Notes under the pieces: generated by a model
Told to the model about the DNA's origin: nothing
Databases searched by the model: none
What the model saw: only the letters and a program-made list of their open reading frames with translations
Translations under genes and position numbers: made by a program
Shown: positions 1-18,483 of the stretch, piece after piece
Numbering within the stretch: position 1 is the stretch's first letter
Layout of the letters: each line of letters begins with the position of its first letter
Source: Gemmatimonadales bacterium
GTDB taxonomy: Bacteria > Gemmatimonadota > Gemmatimonadetes > Gemmatimonadales > GWC2-71-9
Length of the DNA: 19,435 nt
Assembly: GCA_039794085.1 (NCBI GenBank)
Contig: JBDIWC010000063.1
Location: 1 to 19,435, forward strand
Direction of reading: 5' to 3'

Positions 1-85
1 GTGTCGGGCCGCATCTGGTCTTGGGAGTAGGAACCCCGCAGACCGCGAGCATACCCGGGCAGTATCTGTGGCTCCGAGTGTGTAA

Positions 86-115
86 GCCTCTTTGGTTCCG
101 GCTCTGCCGGCTTAG
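86..115 (+). mobile_element. Right end of the TAG-bounded non-coding element family (interior differs from the two full copies; left part outside window)
   Basis: gcctctttggttccggctctgccggcttag matches the terminus of the copies at 12437-12747 (+) and 1974-2299 (-). It contains the hairpin CCGGC-tct-GCCGG followed by CTTAG. Confidence 0.7.
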
Positions 116-173
116 GGAATAGGGAGTAGGGGATAGGGAGACACCCTTCGAACTTCACATGTCAAACTTCGTC
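113..173. repeat. Heptamer tandem arrays: (TAGGGRR)x4 then (CTTCRNN)-type array
   Basis: TAGGGAA TAGGGAG TAGGGGA TAGGGAG at 113-140. CTTCGAA CTTCACA TGTCAAA CTTCGTC at 146-173 overlaps the TM2 gene stop codon. Confidence 0.85.
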
Positions 174-1913: not shown

Positions 1914-1976
1914 CGAAGTGCGAAGGACGCATACATAGGACATAGGACAACATAGGACATGATGTCCTATGTCCTA
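1914..1976. repeat. Heptamer arrays (CGAAGTG-type; CATAGGA x3 with inverted GTCCTAT arm)
   Basis: cgaagtg cgaagga … catagga catagga caa catagga cat ga tgtcctat gtccta. The GTCCTAT array resumes at 2300 after the inserted element. Confidence 0.85.
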
Positions 1977-2299
1977 AGCCGGCAGCGCCGGAACCACAGA
2001 GGCGCCTCGGGGTCGCGCGTGGGTTTTCTTCGGCATGGGTTCCGGTCCTGCCCGAGTACCTCTCCCCACCCCCAGAGCCAACCACAAGAAGCACAAAAGC
2101 ACAGAAACCTCTCTCGCCCCTGGTGGGACCCCATGCGCACCGAGGTGGGCCTCTTGTGACTTCTGTGCTTTTTGTGGCCATTCCCCTTGCACGGCGCGGC
2201 CGATGCGATCGCCGTGACCCGAACGGTCGGCGGGGGGGGGGCGGGAGTCGCCCACAATATTGTTGCCGCCTTGCGTTCAATCTTGTCCGTAAGGGACCA
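1974..2299 (-). mobile_element. Non-coding dispersed element, copy A (326 bp), non-autonomous
   Basis: Reverse complement aligns end to end with 12437-12747 (8 mismatches in the 120 nt from 1971 by manual count; more divergent elsewhere). It interrupts a GTCCTAT array and has an internal (cacaaaa)n…(ttttgtg)n hairpin. Confidence 0.85.
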
Positions 2300-3184: not shown

Positions 3185-3520
3185 GCGGTAGGGATGAAGG
3201 TCCTAGGTCCTATTAGGTCCTATGTCCTAAGTCCCGGGTGTTGGGGACTGGGGGCTGGGGGCTCGGCCGCGGAGTGGCCGAAGAGCATTGCCCAACGGCA
3301 AATCCTGCATCTGTCCTCTAAGTCCCACGTGCTGGGTGTTGGGTGTTGGGGGCTGGGCCCAATACCCAATACCCGGACACGTTGGCACAGGCTTTTTCGG
3401 GGTCCCCCCACACTTCGGATACGACCCCCAACCGTAACCAATTGTCACTCTTCGACTTCTAACCGGACAGTAGTGATACCCGGAACCCAATACCCGGCGG
3501 TCTGTGTCGGGGGCTGGGTT
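3161..3520. repeat. Mosaic of heptamer arrays between convergent genes
   Basis: agggagt/aggcg units at ~3162-3193; (GTCCTAN)n at ~3200-3233; (TGGGGRY/TGGGTGT)n at ~3242-3262 and ~3333-3357; (CCCAATA/CCCGGAA)n at ~3358-3378 and ~3476-3497. Confidence 0.8.
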
Positions 3521-5891: not shown

Positions 5892-6155
5892 AGTTCGAAG
5901 TTTGAAGGTGGCAGCAGCCCACCTGGCAGGGGAGTCCGTCATCGCGAGGGCCCGCAGGGCCCGTGGCGATCTCGTGAACCGAGGCTGGGGATCGTCGAGG
6001 ATGGCGGGCCTTCATGCCAGCCCCCCTGGTCTGGCTCCGGCGGGATGGCCAACCACACGTCGCGCCAAGCAGGCATCGGCTCACGGGATCGCCACGTCGG
6101 CTTCGCCTCCTCGCGATGACAGCCTCCCCTTCAAACTTCGAACTTCGAGCTTCCA
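5881..6155. repeat. Nested inverted repeat: heptamer arms enclosing a 183-bp palindromic element
   Basis: Outer (NNGAAGT)x4 at 5881-5908 pairs with (ACTTCRA)x4 at 6128-6155. Inner GTCATCGCGAGG (5938) … CCTCGCGATGAC (6120), and CGTGGCGATCTCGTGA … TCACGGGATCGCCACG. Confidence 0.9.
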
Positions 6156-9064: not shown

Positions 9065-9819
9065 TGCGGAACAGAGCAACCCTGGCGGGCGCGGTCGCCC
9101 TGGTGGCGCTGCCCGCCCTGCTCGCCGCGCAATCGCTCCAGGACCGGATTGCCGGAGTGTCGAACGGAACGGTCCGGCTGAGTTATGCGGCCCGGGAAGG
9201 GGTCTGCGGCCATGGCACCAGCGTGAACCTGCGGCGCGGTGACGATGAATGGGAGTCCGCCTGTGACGACGGGCCGGTGCGCGTCTCCCTGCGGATCCGC
9301 GACGGTCGGGTCATCGGTGCCCGGACCCGGGTCGGGGGCCGCTGGCGGAGCGAGACCGGGGTCACCGACCTGGGGATGGTTCCGGCCGCCGAGGCCGCGA
9401 CGACGCTCCTGGCGCTGGCGGAACGGGGGGATCCGGGCGGGGACGACCTCGTGTTCCCCGCGGCGATTGCCGACAGCGTGACGGTATGGCCCGCAATGCT
9501 CCGGATCGCGAAGACCGAGCCGCTCCCCCGGAAAACGAGGACCAGTGCCGTGTTCTGGGTGGCGCAGGCGGCGGGTGAGGCGGCGACCGCGGGTCTCGCC
9601 GAGATCGTGGACGACACCAGCGGCGATCGCGAAGTACGTGAACACGCGGTCTTTGCCCTCTCCCAGCTTCCGAAGGACACCGGTGTCCCGGTCCTGCTGC
9701 AGGTGGCGCGGACCAACCCCGACCCGGGTCTTCGCCGGAAGGCGATCTTCTGGCTGGGCCAGTCGGAGGATCCGCGGGCGCTCCGGTTCTTCGAGGAGGT
9801 GCTCGTGCCGCGCGGGTAG
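9064..9819 (+). CDS. Exported HEAT-repeat protein
   Basis: TGATG coupling; signal peptide (…LLAAQS); N-terminal beta domain with a Cys pair; three repeats AVFWVAQ / AVFALSQ / AIFWLGQ. Confidence 0.9.
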   Translation: MRNRATLAGAVALVALPALLAAQSLQDRIAGVSNGTVRLSYAAREGVCGHGTSVNLRRGDDEWESACDDGPVRVSLRIRDGRVIGARTRVGGRWRSETGVTDLGMVPAAEAATTLLALAERGDPGGDDLVFPAAIADSVTVWPAMLRIAKTEPLPRKTRTSAVFWVAQAAGEAATAGLAEIVDDTSGDREVREHAVFALSQLPKDTGVPVLLQVARTNPDPGLRRKAIFWLGQSEDPRALRFFEEVLVPRG

Positions 9820-9960
9820 GGGGGGGTTGGGGGTTGGGGACTGGGGGTTGGGGACTGGGGGTTGGGAACTGGGTATTGGGGGTTGGGGGCTGGGGGCTGG
9901 GGGCGGGGGGTGAGAGGCCCGCAACCCAATGCCCAGAACCCAGTACCCGGGGTGTTGGGG
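9820..9960. repeat. G-rich heptamer array (TGGGGGT/TGGGGAC…) with short inverted arm
   Basis: About 11 consecutive TGGG-NNN heptamers right after the stop codon, then cccaatg cccagaa cccagta ccc. Similar in unit to cyanobacterial STRR1 (CCCCART). Confidence 0.9.
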
Positions 9961-9967
9961 CTGTCGC

Positions 9968-9985
9968 TTGTGAAATATTTCACAA
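9968..9985. promoter_or_regulatory. Perfect Rex-type operator
   Basis: TTGTGAAATATTTCACAA is a perfect 18-bp palindrome matching the established Rex consensus TTGTGAA-N4-TTCACAA; strongly AT-rich for this sequence. Confidence 0.75.
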
Positions 9986-9996
9986 AGTTTCCTTCC

Positions 9997-10030
9997 CCTT
10001 CCAACTTCGAACTTCGCACTTCAAACTTCG
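9997..10030. repeat. (ACTTCRN) heptamer array
   Basis: ccttcca acttcga acttcgc acttcaa acttcg; same family as 4230-4325 and 5881-6155. Confidence 0.85.
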
Positions 10031-10095
10031 ATTACCTTTCCGTCAGGAGATCTCCGAAGCGCCCGGGAACGTCTCTCCCTGAGGGGGGGAACGTG

Positions 10096-11962: not shown

Positions 11963-12430
11963 ATGTCCGACTCTCGCATCGCGTGGGCCCCGGTGCCCAT
12001 CCGGCTCGTTCTCGCCCTCGGCTTCCTGATCCACGGATGGCCCAAGGTCTTCACCGCCGCGGGGAACCAGCAGTTCCAGGGGATGTTGCAGGGGATTGGT
12101 GTTCCGATGCCGGGCCTCATGAGCTATGTCACCGGCGGTGTCGAGGTACTCGGCGGCCTGGCCCTCCTGCTCGGCGTCTGGGCGAGCCTGGCATCGATCC
12201 CCCTCATCATCATCAACCTGGTGGCGATGTTCACCGTCCACATGCCCAACGGATTCAGCTTCATCCATGTGACCGGCATGGGAGAAAGCGGTCCCATCTT
12301 CGGGATGCCGGGCTACGAGGTGAACCTGCTCTACATCGGCGGCCTCCTGGTGGTGGCGTTGATGGGGCCGGGGGCGATGTCGCTGCGACCAGGGAAGCGA
12401 GAGAGCCGCGATCGGAGTGCGACCCTCTAG
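11963..12430 (+). CDS. DoxX family membrane protein
   Basis: IRLVLALGFLIHGWPK, EVLGGLALLLG, AMFTVH, GYEVNL, GPGAMSL motifs; GGAGGAG RBS before ATG 11963. Confidence 0.93.
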   Translation: MSDSRIAWAPVPIRLVLALGFLIHGWPKVFTAAGNQQFQGMLQGIGVPMPGLMSYVTGGVEVLGGLALLLGVWASLASIPLIIINLVAMFTVHMPNGFSFIHVTGMGESGPIFGMPGYEVNLLYIGGLLVVALMGPGAMSLRPGKRESRDRSATL

Positions 12431-12436
12431 AGGGAG

Positions 12437-12747
12437 TAGTCCCTTACGGACAGGATTGAGCACAAAACGGCAGCAATGTTTCGGGCGACGCCCGACCCCC
12501 CGTCAGACACGTCGATCGCAACGGCCGCTCCGTGCGAGGGGAATGGCCACAAAAAGGCACAGAAGTCACAAGAGGCACACCCTCGGTGCGGAGAGGCCCT
12601 CCCAAGGCGAGACTTTTGTATCTTTTGCGCTTCTTGTGGTGGGCTCTGGGGCTGTGGAGAGGTACTCGGGCAGGGCCGGAACCCACGCCGAAGAAAACCC
12701 CCGCGCGACCCCGAGGCGCCTCTGTGGTTCCGGCTGTGCCGGCTTAG
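12437..12747 (+). mobile_element. Non-coding dispersed element, copy B (311 bp)
   Basis: Runs from TAGTCCCTTACGGACAGGATTGA to GGTTCCGGCTGTGCCGGCTTAG; homologous to 1974-2299 in opposite orientation; TAG at both ends. Confidence 0.85.
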
Positions 12748-12880
12748 GACAGAGGACAGAGGACCCGGGAAATAGGACTCAGTTTGGGTCGTTCCTCCTT
12801 GGCCATGCCATGCCTGGGTTCGGGGCCTATGTCCTTTGTCCTCTGTCCTCTGTCCTCTGTCTTTTGTCCCTTGTCCTCTC
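12746..12880. repeat. Inverted heptamer arrays (AGGACAG)n … (CTGTCCT)n
   Basis: aggacag aggacag aggac at 12746-12764; atgtcct ttgtcct ctgtcct ctgtcct ctgtctt ttgtccc ttgtcct at ~12829-12877. Confidence 0.9.
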
Positions 12881-13502: not shown

Positions 13503-16460
13503 TTAGCCCGCCCGGTCCGCGGCGCCTTCCTCCTCGATGGTGAGCGGTGCCTTGGGCGGAATACGGAGCCTCAACCCCGGGCGAAGACCCAGCGAGGAGC
13601 CACCGAGTGCCGATCGGTTGGCCAGCCAGATCTTGGGCCAGAGGCTGGAATCTCCGTAGACTTCCCGCGCCACATCCGACAGGTCCCGGTCCCGCGGGCT
13701 CACCACGTACCAGATCGCGTCAGGTTTCTGGTGGCCCGAGGGGACTGTCCTGGGGGACATGACCTCGCCGGTGGCGATGATCCGGACTGGTCGCACTTGT
13801 TCCGACGCGGTGAGGGCCACACGCTCCGCATGGCCGGGCCGCAGCGTGAGGATGAGGCTGTCGTTCGGCAGGCCCCAGTGGGCAGGCAGCGCAGCCTCGC
13901 CGAGCCGGAGGATCCAGCGCCCCGGCCGGAGCCCTGTCAGCTGAAACTGGCCATCCGCATCGGTAAGCCGCCGCACGACGGTGCCTGCCCCCGTCAGTTC
14001 GACGAGCGCATTGCCCACCGGTCGCCCGGCCGGATGCAGTGTGTCGTTGACGGCGCTCGGGTTCGCGGTCGGGGCGAGACGGAGCGCGCCCGAGATGCGG
14101 GCGGCCCGGGTGACCTCGAACACGACGTCGACCACGAGCCCCTCGCGCACGTCAATGGCGCGCGGCGACGTACCAAGCACGATCCGCTCGGCGCCGATGC
14201 TGGTGAGATCGAGGTCGACCAGATGACTCCCGGGCACCAACCCGGAAAAGACATAGCGTCCGGAGCCATCGGTGAGCACGGACTGTCCCCCGATCCGGAC
14301 GAGCACATTGCTGAGGCCGCGTCCCGATTCCACATCGAGCACCCTACCGGTGACCCGGGCGCCGCCGGCATCCCGCGGAAGGGGCACTCCGAGACGAACC
14401 ACATACTCGATGAGCACCTGGGATGGACCCTCCGAGCCGGACTCGTCGGTGTATCGGGTGCGGCCTTGCAGCACCAGCCGGTGGCCCCAGGGAAGCCCCT
14501 GGTCCAGCATGGCGTCCACGGTTCCGGTTGCGCTGCGAATGCCCTCCAGATCCCGGATGCCGCTCAGCGAGACGCGCACCCGGGTCTGGGCAAACAGACG
14601 CGTCGCGAGGTAGAACGAGCCGGCCAGGTTCCGGCGGGACTTGGCGGCGGCCACGTCGCCGGACGCATACTCGGCGGAGGCGTGGAGAAACGTGCTTCCC
14701 GACTGGAGGCTGGCCTGCATCCCGACGCGATGAAAGGGGCGACGGGTGGCCGCCAGACGATTCTGCAGTTCTCCGATCTCCGCTGACGGGTACAGGGCAA
14801 CCGGCCCCAATCTCCCCCCCAGGCGCACGCGAATGGAGGTCCCGGATTGGTCGGCCGAAGGCGTGCCGCCGATTCCATGTCTCGAGGCGCTGTGCCGGAA
14901 CTCGAGCGTCACCCGATCGGCGAATCCCAGGTATCCCCAACCGGTGACCCTCCGGTATCGCACGCCGGTCGCGGCATTCTTGAGGGGGGAGTTCTCATCG
15001 CGTCCGACGGAGGCCCCCATCTGGAAGGCGCGCCACGGTTGAACCCCCAGGCTCGCAAAATCCCGGCGTTGGCCTCGGAAGCTTCCCGGATACTCCGGAT
15101 CAACTCGAAGGTGCTGAAGATCGTACCAGATCCTCGAACCGACCCCGGTGGCGTGCGCGGAGAATGCTTGCTCTGTCCGATACCTCCCAACGCCCTGCCC
15201 ATACTCCAGATCGACGGCGAGCGCGCGAAATCCGGTCGTGCCACGCACCGTCCAGAGGCTTCCCCGGTCCCCGCCAGGATGAGTGAGACCCTGGGCCGAA
15301 AGGGTGACGCCACCGACCGGCGCAACGGACAGGAAGCCGGCCTGTTCCTCCTGGGCTCGGGTGGTCCCCCGGGGACGACTCAGGAATCCGCCGACGGTCA
15401 CGGGACCGATCCGGGCGCGCCCCTCACCCCCGACGGCGTATCGCCCGAGTTCCGAGAGGGGCGAGAGGGAGTACACCTGATCGCCGGCTCGAAGGGTGAA
15501 CCTCTCAGTCACCAGGCTGATCTGGTATTCCTCACGGGCGCCGTTCAGGGATGGCCCCCGCTGCGGCCCACGGGCCAGAAAATCCAGGCGGGCGGTCCCT
15601 CCCGGGGAAAGCGTTCCTCCACCAAAAACCTCGAAGGCCGATTCCGCGTCCCGCGGAGAGCCGGCACGAAGCCTCAGCTCCACCGGCAATCTTGGGCTCG
15701 GTGGGCTGTTGGAGCTCGCTCGGGGGATGATCGCCACCAGCGTGGTGACGCTGGGTCCTGGTGTGGCGCCCTCCCCGTGATCCTCGCCGGCCTCGTGAAC
15801 CCGGAGTTCCACCCGGTGGTTGGTCGTGCGATCGACCTGGTCCGAGGTCGAGACGACGACAGGGATCGTCCGGGAGGTGCCGGCGGAGAGTTGGAAGGAG
15901 GTGGAGTCGACCCGGGCGGGAAGCTGATCGGCGCTCACCAGTTCCAGTCGAATGTCGGCACTGGCATTGCCGAGATTGGTCAGTTCGAAGGTCAGTCGGT
16001 ACTCATCTCCCGCCGGGGCGAATCGGGGCGCGCTCACCTGGAGGAGACGGAGTTGCCGCCGCCGACCGACCAAGATGACGGCCGAATCCCCCGCGAGCGG
16101 CAGGTCGGTACCGGGCCGGACGACCTCATACCGGATGAGGTAGGGTCCCGGCGGCGCGCGGGCCGGAATGCTCGCCGCGAGGAGCCGGGTATCCCCCATC
16201 CCGGGAGGAAGGGTAAACGGAGGGTCGGCCATGACGGCCCTCCAGCCGGGCGGCAGGCTGACACGCGAACGGAGGGGGGTGCTCGTGGGTCCCACGTTGA
16301 TGACCCGCATGACCAGGGTAGTCGTGGTGCCCGGCTCGGCCTCGATGATCGAGTCGCTCAGCCGGACGACACGCGGCCCCTGGGCGGCGGCGCCCTGCCC
16401 GATCAGGGCGAGCGCGAGGCCGGAGGCGAGGGCCGCGCGGGACCAGTCCAGGCGGCGCAT
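13503..16460 (-). CDS. Usher-like outer-membrane protein: two N-terminal Ig-like (NEW3/COG1470-type) domains, predicted beta-barrel, two carboxypeptidase-regulatory-like domains, C-terminal LysM
   Basis: Signal peptide MRRLDWSRAALASGLALALIGQGAAA; LPPGW Ig motif; long amphipathic beta-strand region; VTGRV…TDGSGRYVFSGLVPG and TDADGQFQLTGLRPG; LysM-like WYVV…DLSDVAREVYGDSSLWPKIWLAN…LRPGLRLRIP. Start could instead be ATG 16484. Confidence 0.8.
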   Translation of the reverse strand: MRRLDWSRAALASGLALALIGQGAAAQGPRVVRLSDSIIEAEPGTTTTLVMRVINVGPTSTPLRSRVSLPPGWRAVMADPPFTLPPGMGDTRLLAASIPARAPPGPYLIRYEVVRPGTDLPLAGDSAVILVGRRRQLRLLQVSAPRFAPAGDEYRLTFELTNLGNASADIRLELVSADQLPARVDSTSFQLSAGTSRTIPVVVSTSDQVDRTTNHRVELRVHEAGEDHGEGATPGPSVTTLVAIIPRASSNSPPSPRLPVELRLRAGSPRDAESAFEVFGGGTLSPGGTARLDFLARGPQRGPSLNGAREEYQISLVTERFTLRAGDQVYSLSPLSELGRYAVGGEGRARIGPVTVGGFLSRPRGTTRAQEEQAGFLSVAPVGGVTLSAQGLTHPGGDRGSLWTVRGTTGFRALAVDLEYGQGVGRYRTEQAFSAHATGVGSRIWYDLQHLRVDPEYPGSFRGQRRDFASLGVQPWRAFQMGASVGRDENSPLKNAATGVRYRRVTGWGYLGFADRVTLEFRHSASRHGIGGTPSADQSGTSIRVRLGGRLGPVALYPSAEIGELQNRLAATRRPFHRVGMQASLQSGSTFLHASAEYASGDVAAAKSRRNLAGSFYLATRLFAQTRVRVSLSGIRDLEGIRSATGTVDAMLDQGLPWGHRLVLQGRTRYTDESGSEGPSQVLIEYVVRLGVPLPRDAGGARVTGRVLDVESGRGLSNVLVRIGGQSVLTDGSGRYVFSGLVPGSHLVDLDLTSIGAERIVLGTSPRAIDVREGLVVDVVFEVTRAARISGALRLAPTANPSAVNDTLHPAGRPVGNALVELTGAGTVVRRLTDADGQFQLTGLRPGRWILRLGEAALPAHWGLPNDSLILTLRPGHAERVALTASEQVRPVRIIATGEVMSPRTVPSGHQKPDAIWYVVSPRDRDLSDVAREVYGDSSLWPKIWLANRSALGGSSLGLRPGLRLRIPPKAPLTIEEEGAADRAG

Positions 16461-16491
16461 GCCACCGAATGGGGGCCCGCCCATTGCTGCA

Positions 16492-17346
16492 TCACAACCG
16501 CAGAGTGTACTGCGCCCCGAAGACATCGTCCCGACCGGTGTCCACGACGACCAGCGCCTTGTAGGACCCGCGGGGCACCCCGGTGAGATCGAATTCCTGG
16601 CGGAGGGCCGTTCCGGGGTAGAGGAGACCGCGCTGTTGACGGAAGACTCCCGCCGGGGATCCGGTCGCCTCATCATACAGTTCGAGCCGAATCGCAGGGC
16701 GATACGCCCGCTCACCGCTGTTGGTCAGCGTGAAGAAAAGAGCTCGATCCCCGGTGGGAATCCCCAAGATCTCCGGATCACCGAAGGCCGCATCGGTCTT
16801 CCCCGGAGCCACCAGGTGGGTCGCGATCTGGACGGCGTATCGGACTCGAGTCGAGATCCCCACCTGCACCTCCGGCGCACCGGACCCTTGGCGGGAGTCG
16901 ATTGCCCGCGAGGGCACGCCTTCCACCATGATGATGCTCCAATAGGTGCCGGAGGGTGACGGCACGCCGGGAGGGACCGTCACCGTGTAGGCGATCGCCT
17001 CCTGCCGGCCGGGCTGTACGACGAGGCGCGCTGGTGTGACCCTCGTCCACGGGGCATTGGACCGTTCGCCGGTACCGGGTGGGTCGTAGAAGCTCCGTCC
17101 GTCGGCGAGGAATCGGTAGTCGGTCTGGTACACCACGATCTCCTGGGGTTCGCGGCCCAGGTTCTCCACCACGATGCTGCCGGAATAGGAGGCCCCCGGT
17201 CCGATCGATCGTTCCTCCACGGCCGGGCTCACGAGGCTCAGCTGGCCCGCAGCCGTAGAGGGAATGGCACAGGCCATGAGGACGGCCACCCCGGTGATTG
17301 CACCCGGAGGCCGAGGGTGAATGCCGGTGTGAGGGGTCGCAGGCAT
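16492..17346 (-). CDS. Periplasmic pilus-chaperone-like protein (two Ig domains)
   Basis: TGATG coupling to the upstream pilin-like gene; signal peptide; GSIVVEN, SNAPW, SGTYWSIIMVE, RYAVQI, TNSGER, LYPG pattern resembling two-domain fimbrial chaperones. Confidence 0.75.
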   Translation of the reverse strand: MPATPHTGIHPRPPGAITGVAVLMACAIPSTAAGQLSLVSPAVEERSIGPGASYSGSIVVENLGREPQEIVVYQTDYRFLADGRSFYDPPGTGERSNAPWTRVTPARLVVQPGRQEAIAYTVTVPPGVPSPSGTYWSIIMVEGVPSRAIDSRQGSGAPEVQVGISTRVRYAVQIATHLVAPGKTDAAFGDPEILGIPTGDRALFFTLTNSGERAYRPAIRLELYDEATGSPAGVFRQQRGLLYPGTALRQEFDLTGVPRGSYKALVVVDTGRDDVFGAQYTLRL

Positions 17347-17822
17347 CAGGGAGATGTCACGGTAAAGGTTACGGATGGTGCCGCGGTCGTCACCACGCCC
17401 GACGCGGACGTGGCGGTCAACCGGTAGGTAATCGTGAGATTGGTGTAGTCTCCGGTCGGAATGCCGGTCACCATGTCCTGGTCCGTGAGGCCAAGCGTGA
17501 CCGCCCCACGAGAAGTCCCGCCGGCCGGGGCCTGGAGCGTGGCCTCGAGTGTCACGCCGGCCGGGGGGGGGGCGCTCAGCCGGGCCAGGATCCGAAGCGA
17601 GCCATAGGTCGTGGACACGTTGTAGGTGGTGCTGTTCTCGGTTACGGCGGAGGGCGGGAGCCCCGGGACCGCGGACACGATTTGGAGCAGCCCAGGATCG
17701 CCGGACAGCGTGAGACTTGCCGTCTGGGCCCGGAGCGAAGGGACCGTCAGGCCCAACCACCCTAGAGCGAAGAGCTTCGCCACGCGGAGCGAGGGACCGG
17801 GAGAGCTACCATCGACGGGCAT
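17346..17822 (-). CDS. Pilin-like subunit 2 (paralogue of 17907-18383)
   Basis: Signal peptide; Thr/Ala/Gly/Ser-rich beta protein sharing SGDPG, PAGVTL, LQAP, D(M/L)VTGI, ITYxLxAT, GVV and VT(F/Y)TV with the upstream gene. Confidence 0.8.
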   Translation of the reverse strand: MPVDGSSPGPSLRVAKLFALGWLGLTVPSLRAQTASLTLSGDPGLLQIVSAVPGLPPSAVTENSTTYNVSTTYGSLRILARLSAPPPAGVTLEATLQAPAGGTSRGAVTLGLTDQDMVTGIPTGDYTNLTITYRLTATSASGVVTTAAPSVTFTVTSP

Positions 17823-17906
17823 GGGGAGGACTCCCGAGCACGGGCATGCGCAGGATAGGCCACCGTGGGCCCACCCCGCGGCACGCTTCTCGCGCCGCGT
17901 TTTGGA

Positions 17907-18383
17907 TCACGTTCCGGCCACCACGGTGTACGTGACGACCTTGCTGCCGCTCACCACGCCGGCCGCTGCGGTAGCCGAGAGACTATAGGTGATCGTCTTG
18001 CCGCTTTCGTTGAGCAGGGTGATGCCCGTGACCAGGTCGGTGGCGACGGTGGTCAGGACAACGGCGCCCGCACTTGTGGCGGCCGTCGGGGCCTGCAGGT
18101 CGACCGTGAGGGTGACGCCGGCCGGCATGTTGGTGGCCAGGGCGGCCTGGACCTTGGCCCCGGTCTGGTTGGTGGTGAAGTGCCAGGTCGTCGTCGCATC
18201 CGTGACCGAGGTCGGCGGGCTGCCGGGGGTCGCGGTCGTGATGGTGAGGGCCCCGGGGTCTCCCGACACCGCCATCGTGTTGATGGCATTGACAGCGTAG
18301 GTGACAGTCTGGGTCTGGGCCGACGCAGTGGTCGCCAGAGCCAGCAGTGCCAGGGCCAGAAGGGGAGTTGTTCGTCCTCCCAT
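17907..18383 (-). CDS. Pilin-like subunit 1 (probable major subunit)
   Basis: Strong RBS GAGGAGGA; signal peptide ending ASA|Q; ~136-aa mature Thr/Ala/Val-rich all-beta protein without Cys; first gene of the operon. Confidence 0.85.
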   Translation of the reverse strand: MGGRTTPLLALALLALATTASAQTQTVTYAVNAINTMAVSGDPGALTITTATPGSPPTSVTDATTTWHFTTNQTGAKVQAALATNMPAGVTLTVDLQAPTAATSAGAVVLTTVATDLVTGITLLNESGKTITYSLSATAAAGVVSGSKVVTYTVVAGT

Positions 18384-18483
18384 GGCGGTATCCTCCTCGT
18401 ACAGGTGGGCAGCGCAGAGCGCCGCAGCCCCCAACCGAGCGCAGGGGGACACGCAAGAGGTGTCGGCAGAGCGAGGAAAATCC

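Follow-up and report, generated by a model that had tools for sequence, protein, structure and literature searches.

The two homologous stretches at 1974-2299 and 12437-12747 of the window, the whole 19,435-nucleotide stretch of DNA analysed here, are copies of a real, polymorphic, multicopy element with conserved asymmetric ends and empty orthologous sites. Comparison of their ends with those of gene-bearing elements in other genomes makes it very likely that the copies in this genome (G000) are non-autonomous miniatures of an apparently unnamed insertion sequence (IS) family that encodes a protein of about 500 amino acids. This protein, carried by IS elements of 1.62 to 1.69 kb, probably moves the miniatures in trans in a rolling-circle-like manner, a mechanism that we hold less surely than the family membership.

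Copies in the window and across the genome

The initial annotation described two homologous copies in opposite orientation (A minus, B plus), copy B bounded by TAG…TAG and copy A by TGG…TAG, with dissimilar left and right ends and no terminal inverted repeats. All of this was borne out, the coordinates and cores being correct. The features in the window are:

1974..2299, minus strand: copy A, complete miniature with its two cores; the element proper spans 2296..1974 and the target-side core TGG lies at 2299-2297
2250..2296, minus strand: copy A left end (TCCCTTACGGACA plus a second conserved block), conserved in 99 left ends; putative start (ori-like) end
2297..2299, minus strand: copy A target-side core, TGG instead of TAG (the left core is TAG in 90 of the 99 left ends of the genome)
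2081..2179, no strand: copy A inverted 9-mer arrays of the CACAAAAAG/CACAGAAG type, probably captured cargo
1974..2003, minus strand: copy A right end, TGGTT-CCGGC-GCT-GCCGG-CT-TAG; 5-bp stem 1979-1991, terminal TAG 1976-1974; putative stop (ter-like) end
1933..1976, no strand: TAGGACA/TGTCCTA heptamer arrays in both orientations beside copy A, continuing at 2300-2309; related arrays at the empty G001 site
12437..12747, plus strand: copy B, complete miniature including both cores; target TAG 12437-12439, element 12440-12747
12440..12486, plus strand: copy B left end, from sequence comparison
12545..12639, no strand: copy B inverted 9-mer arrays (cargo module)
12718..12747, plus strand: copy B right end; stem 12730-12742, terminal TAG 12745-12747
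12746..12764, plus strand: AGGACAG heptamers that follow copy B, with their inverted partner array at 12826-12879
1..115, plus strand: 3' part of a long non-coding form of about 640 bp, truncated where the contig begins; stem 98-110, terminal TAG 113-115
86-115, plus strand: third right end in the window, belonging to the long non-coding form
113..140, plus strand: TAGGGAA/TAGGGAG heptamer array (period-7 repeat) after the third right end

Copies A and B are 82% identical over 326 nt (E 6e-86), and their outer flanks are unrelated. Copy A is flanked by genes for a putative porin and for an arginase-family protein, and copy B follows a DoxX gene. The reported lack of a credible open reading frame extends to the whole genome, in which the element is always non-coding and 1,140 translated interior frames gave no transposase-profile match (best E 2.2). 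The subterminal hairpin fared less evenly: a terminal 5-bp stem is conserved, yet in copies A and B it is no stabler than in shuffled sequences (z 0.03 and -0.85, respectively); the value for the third right end is -1.99. The suggested Rfam search, at E ≤ 1, gave no match on copies A and B, its sole row lying elsewhere in the window (9813-10045).

A filtered search of the genome located 99 left ends and 91 right ends, the right-end filter having left out three ends with a TAT core, and looser pairing of ends yielded 56 complete copies of 192 to 527 bp. The element is therefore multicopy well beyond the window, with about 100 miniatures in this genome, all of them non-coding, and the same ends in other genomes. 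The assembly is 94.7% complete in 115 contigs, and elements account for 72 of its 230 contig ends. Many contigs terminate in the same 112-nt sequence, which overlaps contigs that bear left ends and so indicates one non-coding unit, the form of about 640 bp, that is collapsed at contig breaks. The left-end pattern was found in one of 40 relatives (G001, a congener, with 23 matches) and the right-end pattern in two of 401 sampled genomes of the phylum, G000 and G001; close variants of the right end are also present in G413 and G414, two genomes that were arrived at differently.

Only the first ~45 and the last ~25 nt are common to all copies. The interiors fall into several groups with a median pairwise identity of 0.4, and they contain modules that also occur on their own: a 9-mer module is found 52 times inside or near element ends versus 39 times away from them, and REP-like palindromes 18 times inside elements versus 76 times outside. 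The interiors probably derive from other repeats of the host that became enclosed by a left and a right end. Bacterial MITEs are likewise short, non-coding and high-copy and have ends in common with a full-length IS; terminal inverted repeats and target duplication are classical for them, whereas the present elements have neither, and their interiors are other host repeats instead of remnants of a deleted gene.

The variable interiors also bear on the idea that these are IS110/IS1111-like elements whose interior encodes a guiding bridge RNA. Ends without inverted repeats, a short core and a preference for repeats are traits of IS110 elements that recur here, and the long non-coding form holds TGGGAGTAGG (window 21-30), which resembles its own target. 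This explanation is largely refuted and carries hardly any weight, since PF01548 has no match in this genome, the long coding elements have no DEDD domain, copies A and B match nothing in Rfam, and the interiors are unconserved and shrink to 42-87 nt in distant miniatures. The TGGGAGTAGG at window 21-30 is probably a captured piece of an array.

Empty sites, cores and heptamer arrays

Empty orthologous sites, which the initial annotation had suggested looking for, were found in two sources. Copy A is absent from the orthologous site in G001, where related arrays are present, and both copies are missing from contigs of a related strain (runs X5 and X7 of one study), which pass over 12382-12774 in the case of copy B; these data are contigs and not raw reads, in which a circle junction and tandem copies give the same joint. 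Among the matches listed, run contigs matched to the left end showed known interiors only. The 17 element loci of G001 gave nine complete elements, and the orthologous sites in G000 are element-free for five, shared for two and unresolved for two. At one of them (L015) the empty site in G000 reads …GGGGTTC TAG GTGGTGGGG, with exactly one TAG where G001 has TAG-element-TAG. The remaining empty sites sit in variable arrays or diverged DNA and are not readable to the base.

The right core in this genome is TAG in 68 and TGG in 16 of 91 ends, and it is followed by G in 87 of 91, as it is in all 21 right ends of the gene-bearing genomes G427-G429. In G427 and G429, the left TAG is preceded by T and the right TAG followed by G in all 13 copies. 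Core variants separate the two triplets. Copies with a TCGG loop have TGG as right core in 11 of 11 cases, with varied flanks after it, and TAG as left core in the four visible cases; the near-identical copies C17 and C41 have a right TAT in common and diverge directly after it; and copy A has a left TGG within a group having right TAG. On the basis of these variants, the right triplet is assigned to the element and the left triplet to the target, the third core base being placed by one near-identical pair and one more copy of the same cluster. Read in this way, the sequences place insertion at (T)TAG^G without target duplication, and TAG…TAG is neither a duplicated nor a shared target, one TAG being the element's own end.

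The initial annotation had also held that removal of copy A, leaving one core, restores an uninterrupted array. Three GTCCTAT units do result if the right-end core is kept, whereas keeping the left core gives GTCCTAT GTCCCAT GTCCTAT; because the left core and not the right is target-derived, the restoration is qualified. The notion that read-through carried a heptamer along in the TAT-core copies was dropped on account of the divergence of C17 and C41 right after TAT. A possible TTAG-TNN-CTAA stem across the left core is perfect in G427 and pOLGA1 and mismatched in G000.

All three right ends in the window enter period-7 repeats (113-139, 1962-1976 and 12746-12764), as had been described. In a genome-wide comparison of array fractions at intergenic TAGG sites, based on rough gene calls (79% coding), an array follows 48 of 87 right ends versus 24% of 2,885 sites, or 23% of 2,632 sites when element flanks are removed from the background. 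At the hexamer-matched sites TAGGGA/TAGGAC, arrays are present at 42 of 68 ends versus 46% of 787 sites, a 1.3-fold difference; p-values for array enrichment are inflated because the copies cluster. TAGG(C/T) is taken by two of 87 ends, though it makes up 41% of intergenic TAGG, and arrays of TAGGCGG and of TAGGACA are equally frequent (77 of each). Arrays follow right ends in nine of 12 cases in G414 and three of 11 in G413, and in one of 120 distant cases. The proposal that heptamer arrays are landing pads is supported by the roughly twofold enrichment in this genome and by the recurrence in two related ones, but it is overstated, as the target is TAG^G and a single one of the 120 distant sites has an array. 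Arrays pre-exist and are not obligatory, and they mostly supply TAGG(G/A) in intergenic DNA; a modest further array bias of unexplained cause remains.

Arrays might conversely be a product of the element, as footprints or through slippage at the nicked TAG, which would fit their presence beside 35 of 49 complete copies in this genome and their frequency after the G414 right ends. We regard this as most improbable: about half of the 751 heptamer arrays in the genome have no TAG (364 have it on either strand), empty orthologous sites already hold arrays, and next to none of the distant copies has one. The evidence thus favours arrays as pre-existing targets. A general association of distant miniatures with 7- or 9-mer repeats inside the right end was also considered and is unsupported (6 vs 2 and 1 vs 2 of 105).

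The 751 arrays have many unit types (among them ACCGCCT, ACATAGG, AAACTTC, AACTTCG and ACTCCCT), and the element does not explain their origin. Intergenic arrays mark variable sites: in the array-rich intergenic stretch at window 3227-3520, positions 3234-3520 are shortened in the X5/X7 contigs, and in place of that at 9818-10045 these contigs have 3,262 other letters. Window 5928-6130, with a 58-nt inverted repeat of the GTCATCGCGAGG…GATCTC type between GAAGTTT heptamer arrays and a high summed contig depth in four runs, represents another multicopy repeat family. A minus-strand cluster at window 13503-18452, with low contig depth in runs X5 and X7, encodes several small proteins that have a signal peptide and no Pfam match, together with one of 1,070 aa that contains carboxypeptidase-regulatory-like domains. 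Elsewhere in the genome, a four-helix-bundle gene (PF05635; G000:C34:9908-10851, L275-L280) precedes four fragments of its own family, three of which are spaced at 133 bp and each of which contains a TGA, and GxxExxY nuclease genes are also present.

Gene-bearing relatives and their protein

An estimate from 2 of 64 parts puts the right-end motif at about 4,400 stretches across GTDB genomes, spread over many phyla, and at 12 distant loci a related open reading frame begins just inside the right end on the opposite strand. Among 99 loci with at least 250 nt available, 23 have the left-end motif TAGT[ACG]NCT[TA]A[CT] upstream. The distance is 1.62-1.67 kb in five of these, about 1 kb in two and 42-322 nt in 16; control sequences of 268 kb and 228 kb gave no match to this motif. 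In L047, L055 and L067, TAGTCCCTTA[CT] lies just past the stop codon of the parent gene, and TAGTCCCTTA[CT]…TTGGTTCCGGCTnnnCCGGnTTAG bound the gene-bearing elements (L047, L055 and L067/G428). Related ends are present in G427, G429, G430 and pOLGA1. Parent elements of 1.62-1.69 kb with the gene for the ~500-aa protein are multi-copy and occur in many phyla.

Three genomes that were chosen by protein and not by end motif (G427, G428 and G429) have copies that all terminate in GGTTCCGGCTnnnCCGGnT-TAG. G427 contains seven identical copies of 1,646 nt in seven different flanks, sharp at both ends and without flank capture; the ends are borne by six of six examined copies in G429, and by eight of eight right ends in G428. 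In G414 (Longimicrobium sp.), the left end abuts the C-terminus of the gene within a TAGGGAA array, and the genome has six right ends of the gene type alongside six of the miniature type. Two divergent members of the family in G428 form a 3.5-kb composite joined by one TAG (e.g. L265-L274, C5:682000-686400), which has many copies and was seen at four of four examined sites with different outer flanks; the single forms number five copies of member B and one of member A. The second, divergent member in G428 has unrelated ends that likewise border TAG.

More than 15 metagenome loci (L174, L177 and similar) contain two left-end-like sequences head to head, TAGTCCCTTACGGAC and, after ~35 nt, GTCCGTAAGGTACTA. 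They have no hairpin end and no parent gene, one of them precedes an apparent tRNA gene, and they may represent a related short palindromic element or a chance likeness.

Neither a single protein nor a profile detected the parent gene in G000, G001 and G002, this genome and two congeners. Nor was it found in the 1,140 frames of element interiors in G000 or inside the element ends at contig breaks; G414, where fragments of the partner occur together with a miniature, does show such traces. Parent-gene matches were found in two of 61 sampled genomes of the order. A metagenome scan with the 16-nt left end of G000 gave 63 matches, most of them apparently due to chance, with two true miniatures and no coding element. 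We propose that the driver of the G000 copies has been lost, is unbinned or is extrachromosomal, and the link between these miniatures and their driver rests on shared ends and target. The element had been described as non-autonomous and mobilised in trans, which agrees with its lack of inverted repeats and genes, its fixed short target and the ends that it has in common with gene-bearing elements.

The initial annotation went further in suggesting HUH-type mobilisation (IS200/IS605, IS91 or REP/RAYT) and long copies with an HUH transposase or a tyrosine recombinase. IS200/IS605 elements such as IS608 and the REP/RAYT systems have asymmetric ends, subterminal hairpins, insertion 3' of a short sequence and intergenic non-autonomous derivatives, and the present element resembles them in all of these respects. 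A host Y1 enzyme of the RAYT or IS200 type could in principle move the miniatures as REP-like elements are moved, given that this genome has five Y1_Tnp matches while the parent gene was not found there, that 46 of 99 left flanks are GTAG, and that some copies contain REP-like palindromes. We consider this very doubtful. The small Y1 HUH enzyme of those systems is not linked to the ends here (no element end lies within 1.5 kb of any of the five Y1 loci), the G of GTAG belongs to the target arrays, with T usual elsewhere, and most REP-like modules stand outside the elements (76 vs 18 inside). Both ends, moreover, match elements coding a non-HUH protein, so the long copies carry neither of the expected enzymes and have in their place a protein with a predicted TBP-like (Rep_trans-like) fold.

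Homologues of this protein number at least 8,000 at 90% clustering and 7,081 representatives, fragments included, at 50% clustering; where named, they are labelled MarR regulator or hypothetical. Pfam, NCBIfam and PHROGs gave weak winged-helix matches only and no transposase name. At E ≤ 0.01, Pfam showed no HUH transposase, DEDD domain or Rep_trans in three parent proteins, and Rep_trans (PF02486) and DUF7845 are not among the best 25 of 50 Pfam families for 95 members. A search of solved structures by sequence returned nothing for the single protein and winged-helix matches only for the profile, ESM Atlas matches are to unnamed clusters only, and one query of viral_contigs found no relative.

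In an AlphaFold2 model (pLDDT 95.9), residues 398-514 form a winged helix (Z up to 9.6). A separate model of the N-terminal 385 residues resembles TBP (VIA Z 8.1-8.4), RepDE (4CWC; VIA Z 7.3, rmsd 5.0 Å, 179 aligned) and RepSTK1 (4CIJ; VIA Z 7.1, rmsd 5.0 Å, 194 aligned). RepSTK1 4CIJ is also the best Foldseek match (E 1e-4 to 3e-4), and matches among viral structures are to TBP-fold proteins and inovirus Rep. These middling scores (TM about 0.25-0.33, with TBP itself scoring as high as the Rep proteins) indicate fold and not function. Strong conservation is seen at D31 (93/93), D259 (102/103), Y329 (101/103), K331 (100/103), R337 (102/102) and E339 (99/102), and the consensus HYY replaces H-U-H. 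The conserved residues, matched by sequence order, follow the order of the Rep_trans motifs, which according to PMC5714925 are an N' D, RxD, YxKxxE and W/LxRxE; the parent protein lacks the R of RxD and also the E of YxKxxE. True Rep_trans genes sought for a profile comparison amounted to two weak fragments, which were left out. We predict from the model that the protein is a Rep_trans-like tyrosine nicking enzyme.

Two known groups come close to it. The Rep_trans (PF02486) initiators and the MOBT relaxases, with RepSTK1 4CIJ and RepDE 4CWC, have the TBP-like fold that is predicted for the parent protein and, going by sequence order, may share with it the conserved N-terminal D, second D, YxK and RxE; the parent protein in contrast has no Pfam match to them, incomplete RxD and YxKxxE motifs, ~500 aa with a C-terminal winged helix, and a location in multi-copy IS instead of plasmids, phages or ICEs. 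Rep_trans enzymes have a TBP fold and are unrelated to HUH, according to PMC13107129, which also describes archaeal Rep-Arvir as a fusion of a TBP-like nuclease to a MarR-like winged helix. This Rep-Arvir/DUF7845 arrangement resembles that of the parent protein, and the BFVD entries A0A345MNV4 and A0A2N9QVX7, named in the same paper, also match the parent-protein model; Rep-Arvir proteins differ in being initiators of archaeal replicons (viruses, plasmids) with a further C-terminal domain, whereas the parent protein is bacterial and IS-borne. The parent protein therefore resembles both groups without meeting their sequence definitions. No description of the family and no report of a Rep_trans-like nicking enzyme acting as a transposase was found in the literature covered, which left subscription journals and ISfinder outside.

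Proposed mode of movement and its significance

By analogy with IS91, the left end would serve as ori and the right end as ter. At the left end, which adjoins the 3' end of the gene, the enzyme would nick a single strand 3' of TAG and hold the 5' end (TCCC…) on Tyr329. Displacement of that strand would run as far as the hairpin end, where a second cut would be made 3' of the TAG that belongs to the element; the freed strand would then be joined, probably via a single-stranded circle, to a TAG^G target, and nothing would be duplicated. Each insertion would create a new TAG^G at its right end, accounting for tandems in which one TAG links the copies, and heptamer arrays would be used because they offer dense TAGG(G/A) sites in intergenic DNA.

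IS91, as presented in PMC13181058 and PMC5714925, has no terminal inverted repeats and causes no duplication, its target lies beside oriIS downstream of the gene, and a similar sequence is found at the palindromic terIS upstream of it; failed termination moves adjacent DNA (PMC13181058). The present elements are like IS91 (IS91, IS801, IS1294) and ISCR in these points, with a short target beside the end downstream of the gene and, as the G428 composites suggest, co-movement of adjacent DNA. They differ in that IS91 has an HUH enzyme, whereas here a TBP-like fold is predicted, with a tyrosine at a strand end and no HUH motif, and in that the target is TAG^G and not CTTG/GTTC. By this comparison, the element works like IS91 and is not a member of it.

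Four right ends in G000 are joined to a left end via one TAG, and 14 more lie 6-22 nt away from one. At G000:C52:4835-6435, four elements are joined by single TAGs, two 320-nt units being identical, and a fifth follows three heptamers further; this tandem is a concatemer, the outcome of repeated re-targeting or an assembly artefact.

The same parent and enzyme could also operate without a rolling circle, either by IS608-like peel-and-paste on single-stranded DNA or by conservative strand exchange across the 3-bp core. The fixed short core, the absence of duplication and the small hairpins at both ends would fit such modes equally well, as would the seven of seven G427 copies that are sharp at both ends without flank capture. 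The 3.5-kb composite of G428, which moves as one unit, fits instead a read-through of the inner end; together with the C52 tandem of three units, of which two are identical, and the fact that the solved relatives of the fold are rolling-circle initiators, it makes these alternatives rather unlikely.

Rolling-circle-like movement by the parent protein remains the preferred reading, and on balance we incline, with some reserve, to a broader form of it. The elements may constitute an unnamed, very large class of bacterial IS in which a tyrosine nuclease transposase of TBP fold (Rep_trans-like) represents an independent invention of rolling-circle transposition. Such elements would need only ends of ~45 and ~25 nt and a TAG^G target and could carry arbitrary DNA, and in this lineage an active preference for G-rich heptamer arrays as safe harbours may have accompanied the spread of ~100 cargo-bearing miniatures.

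If the enzyme is confirmed, a class of transposase would be added beside the DDE, HUH, serine/tyrosine recombinase and IS110 types, and thousands of 'MarR regulator' genes would be re-annotated. The miniatures would define the minimal ends required in cis and fix the cut at TAG^G, and they appear to tolerate unrelated cargo of 42-640 bp, with the composite in G428 reaching 3.5 kb. Their ends and target provide a substrate for an assay and, possibly, a tool for duplication-free insertion.
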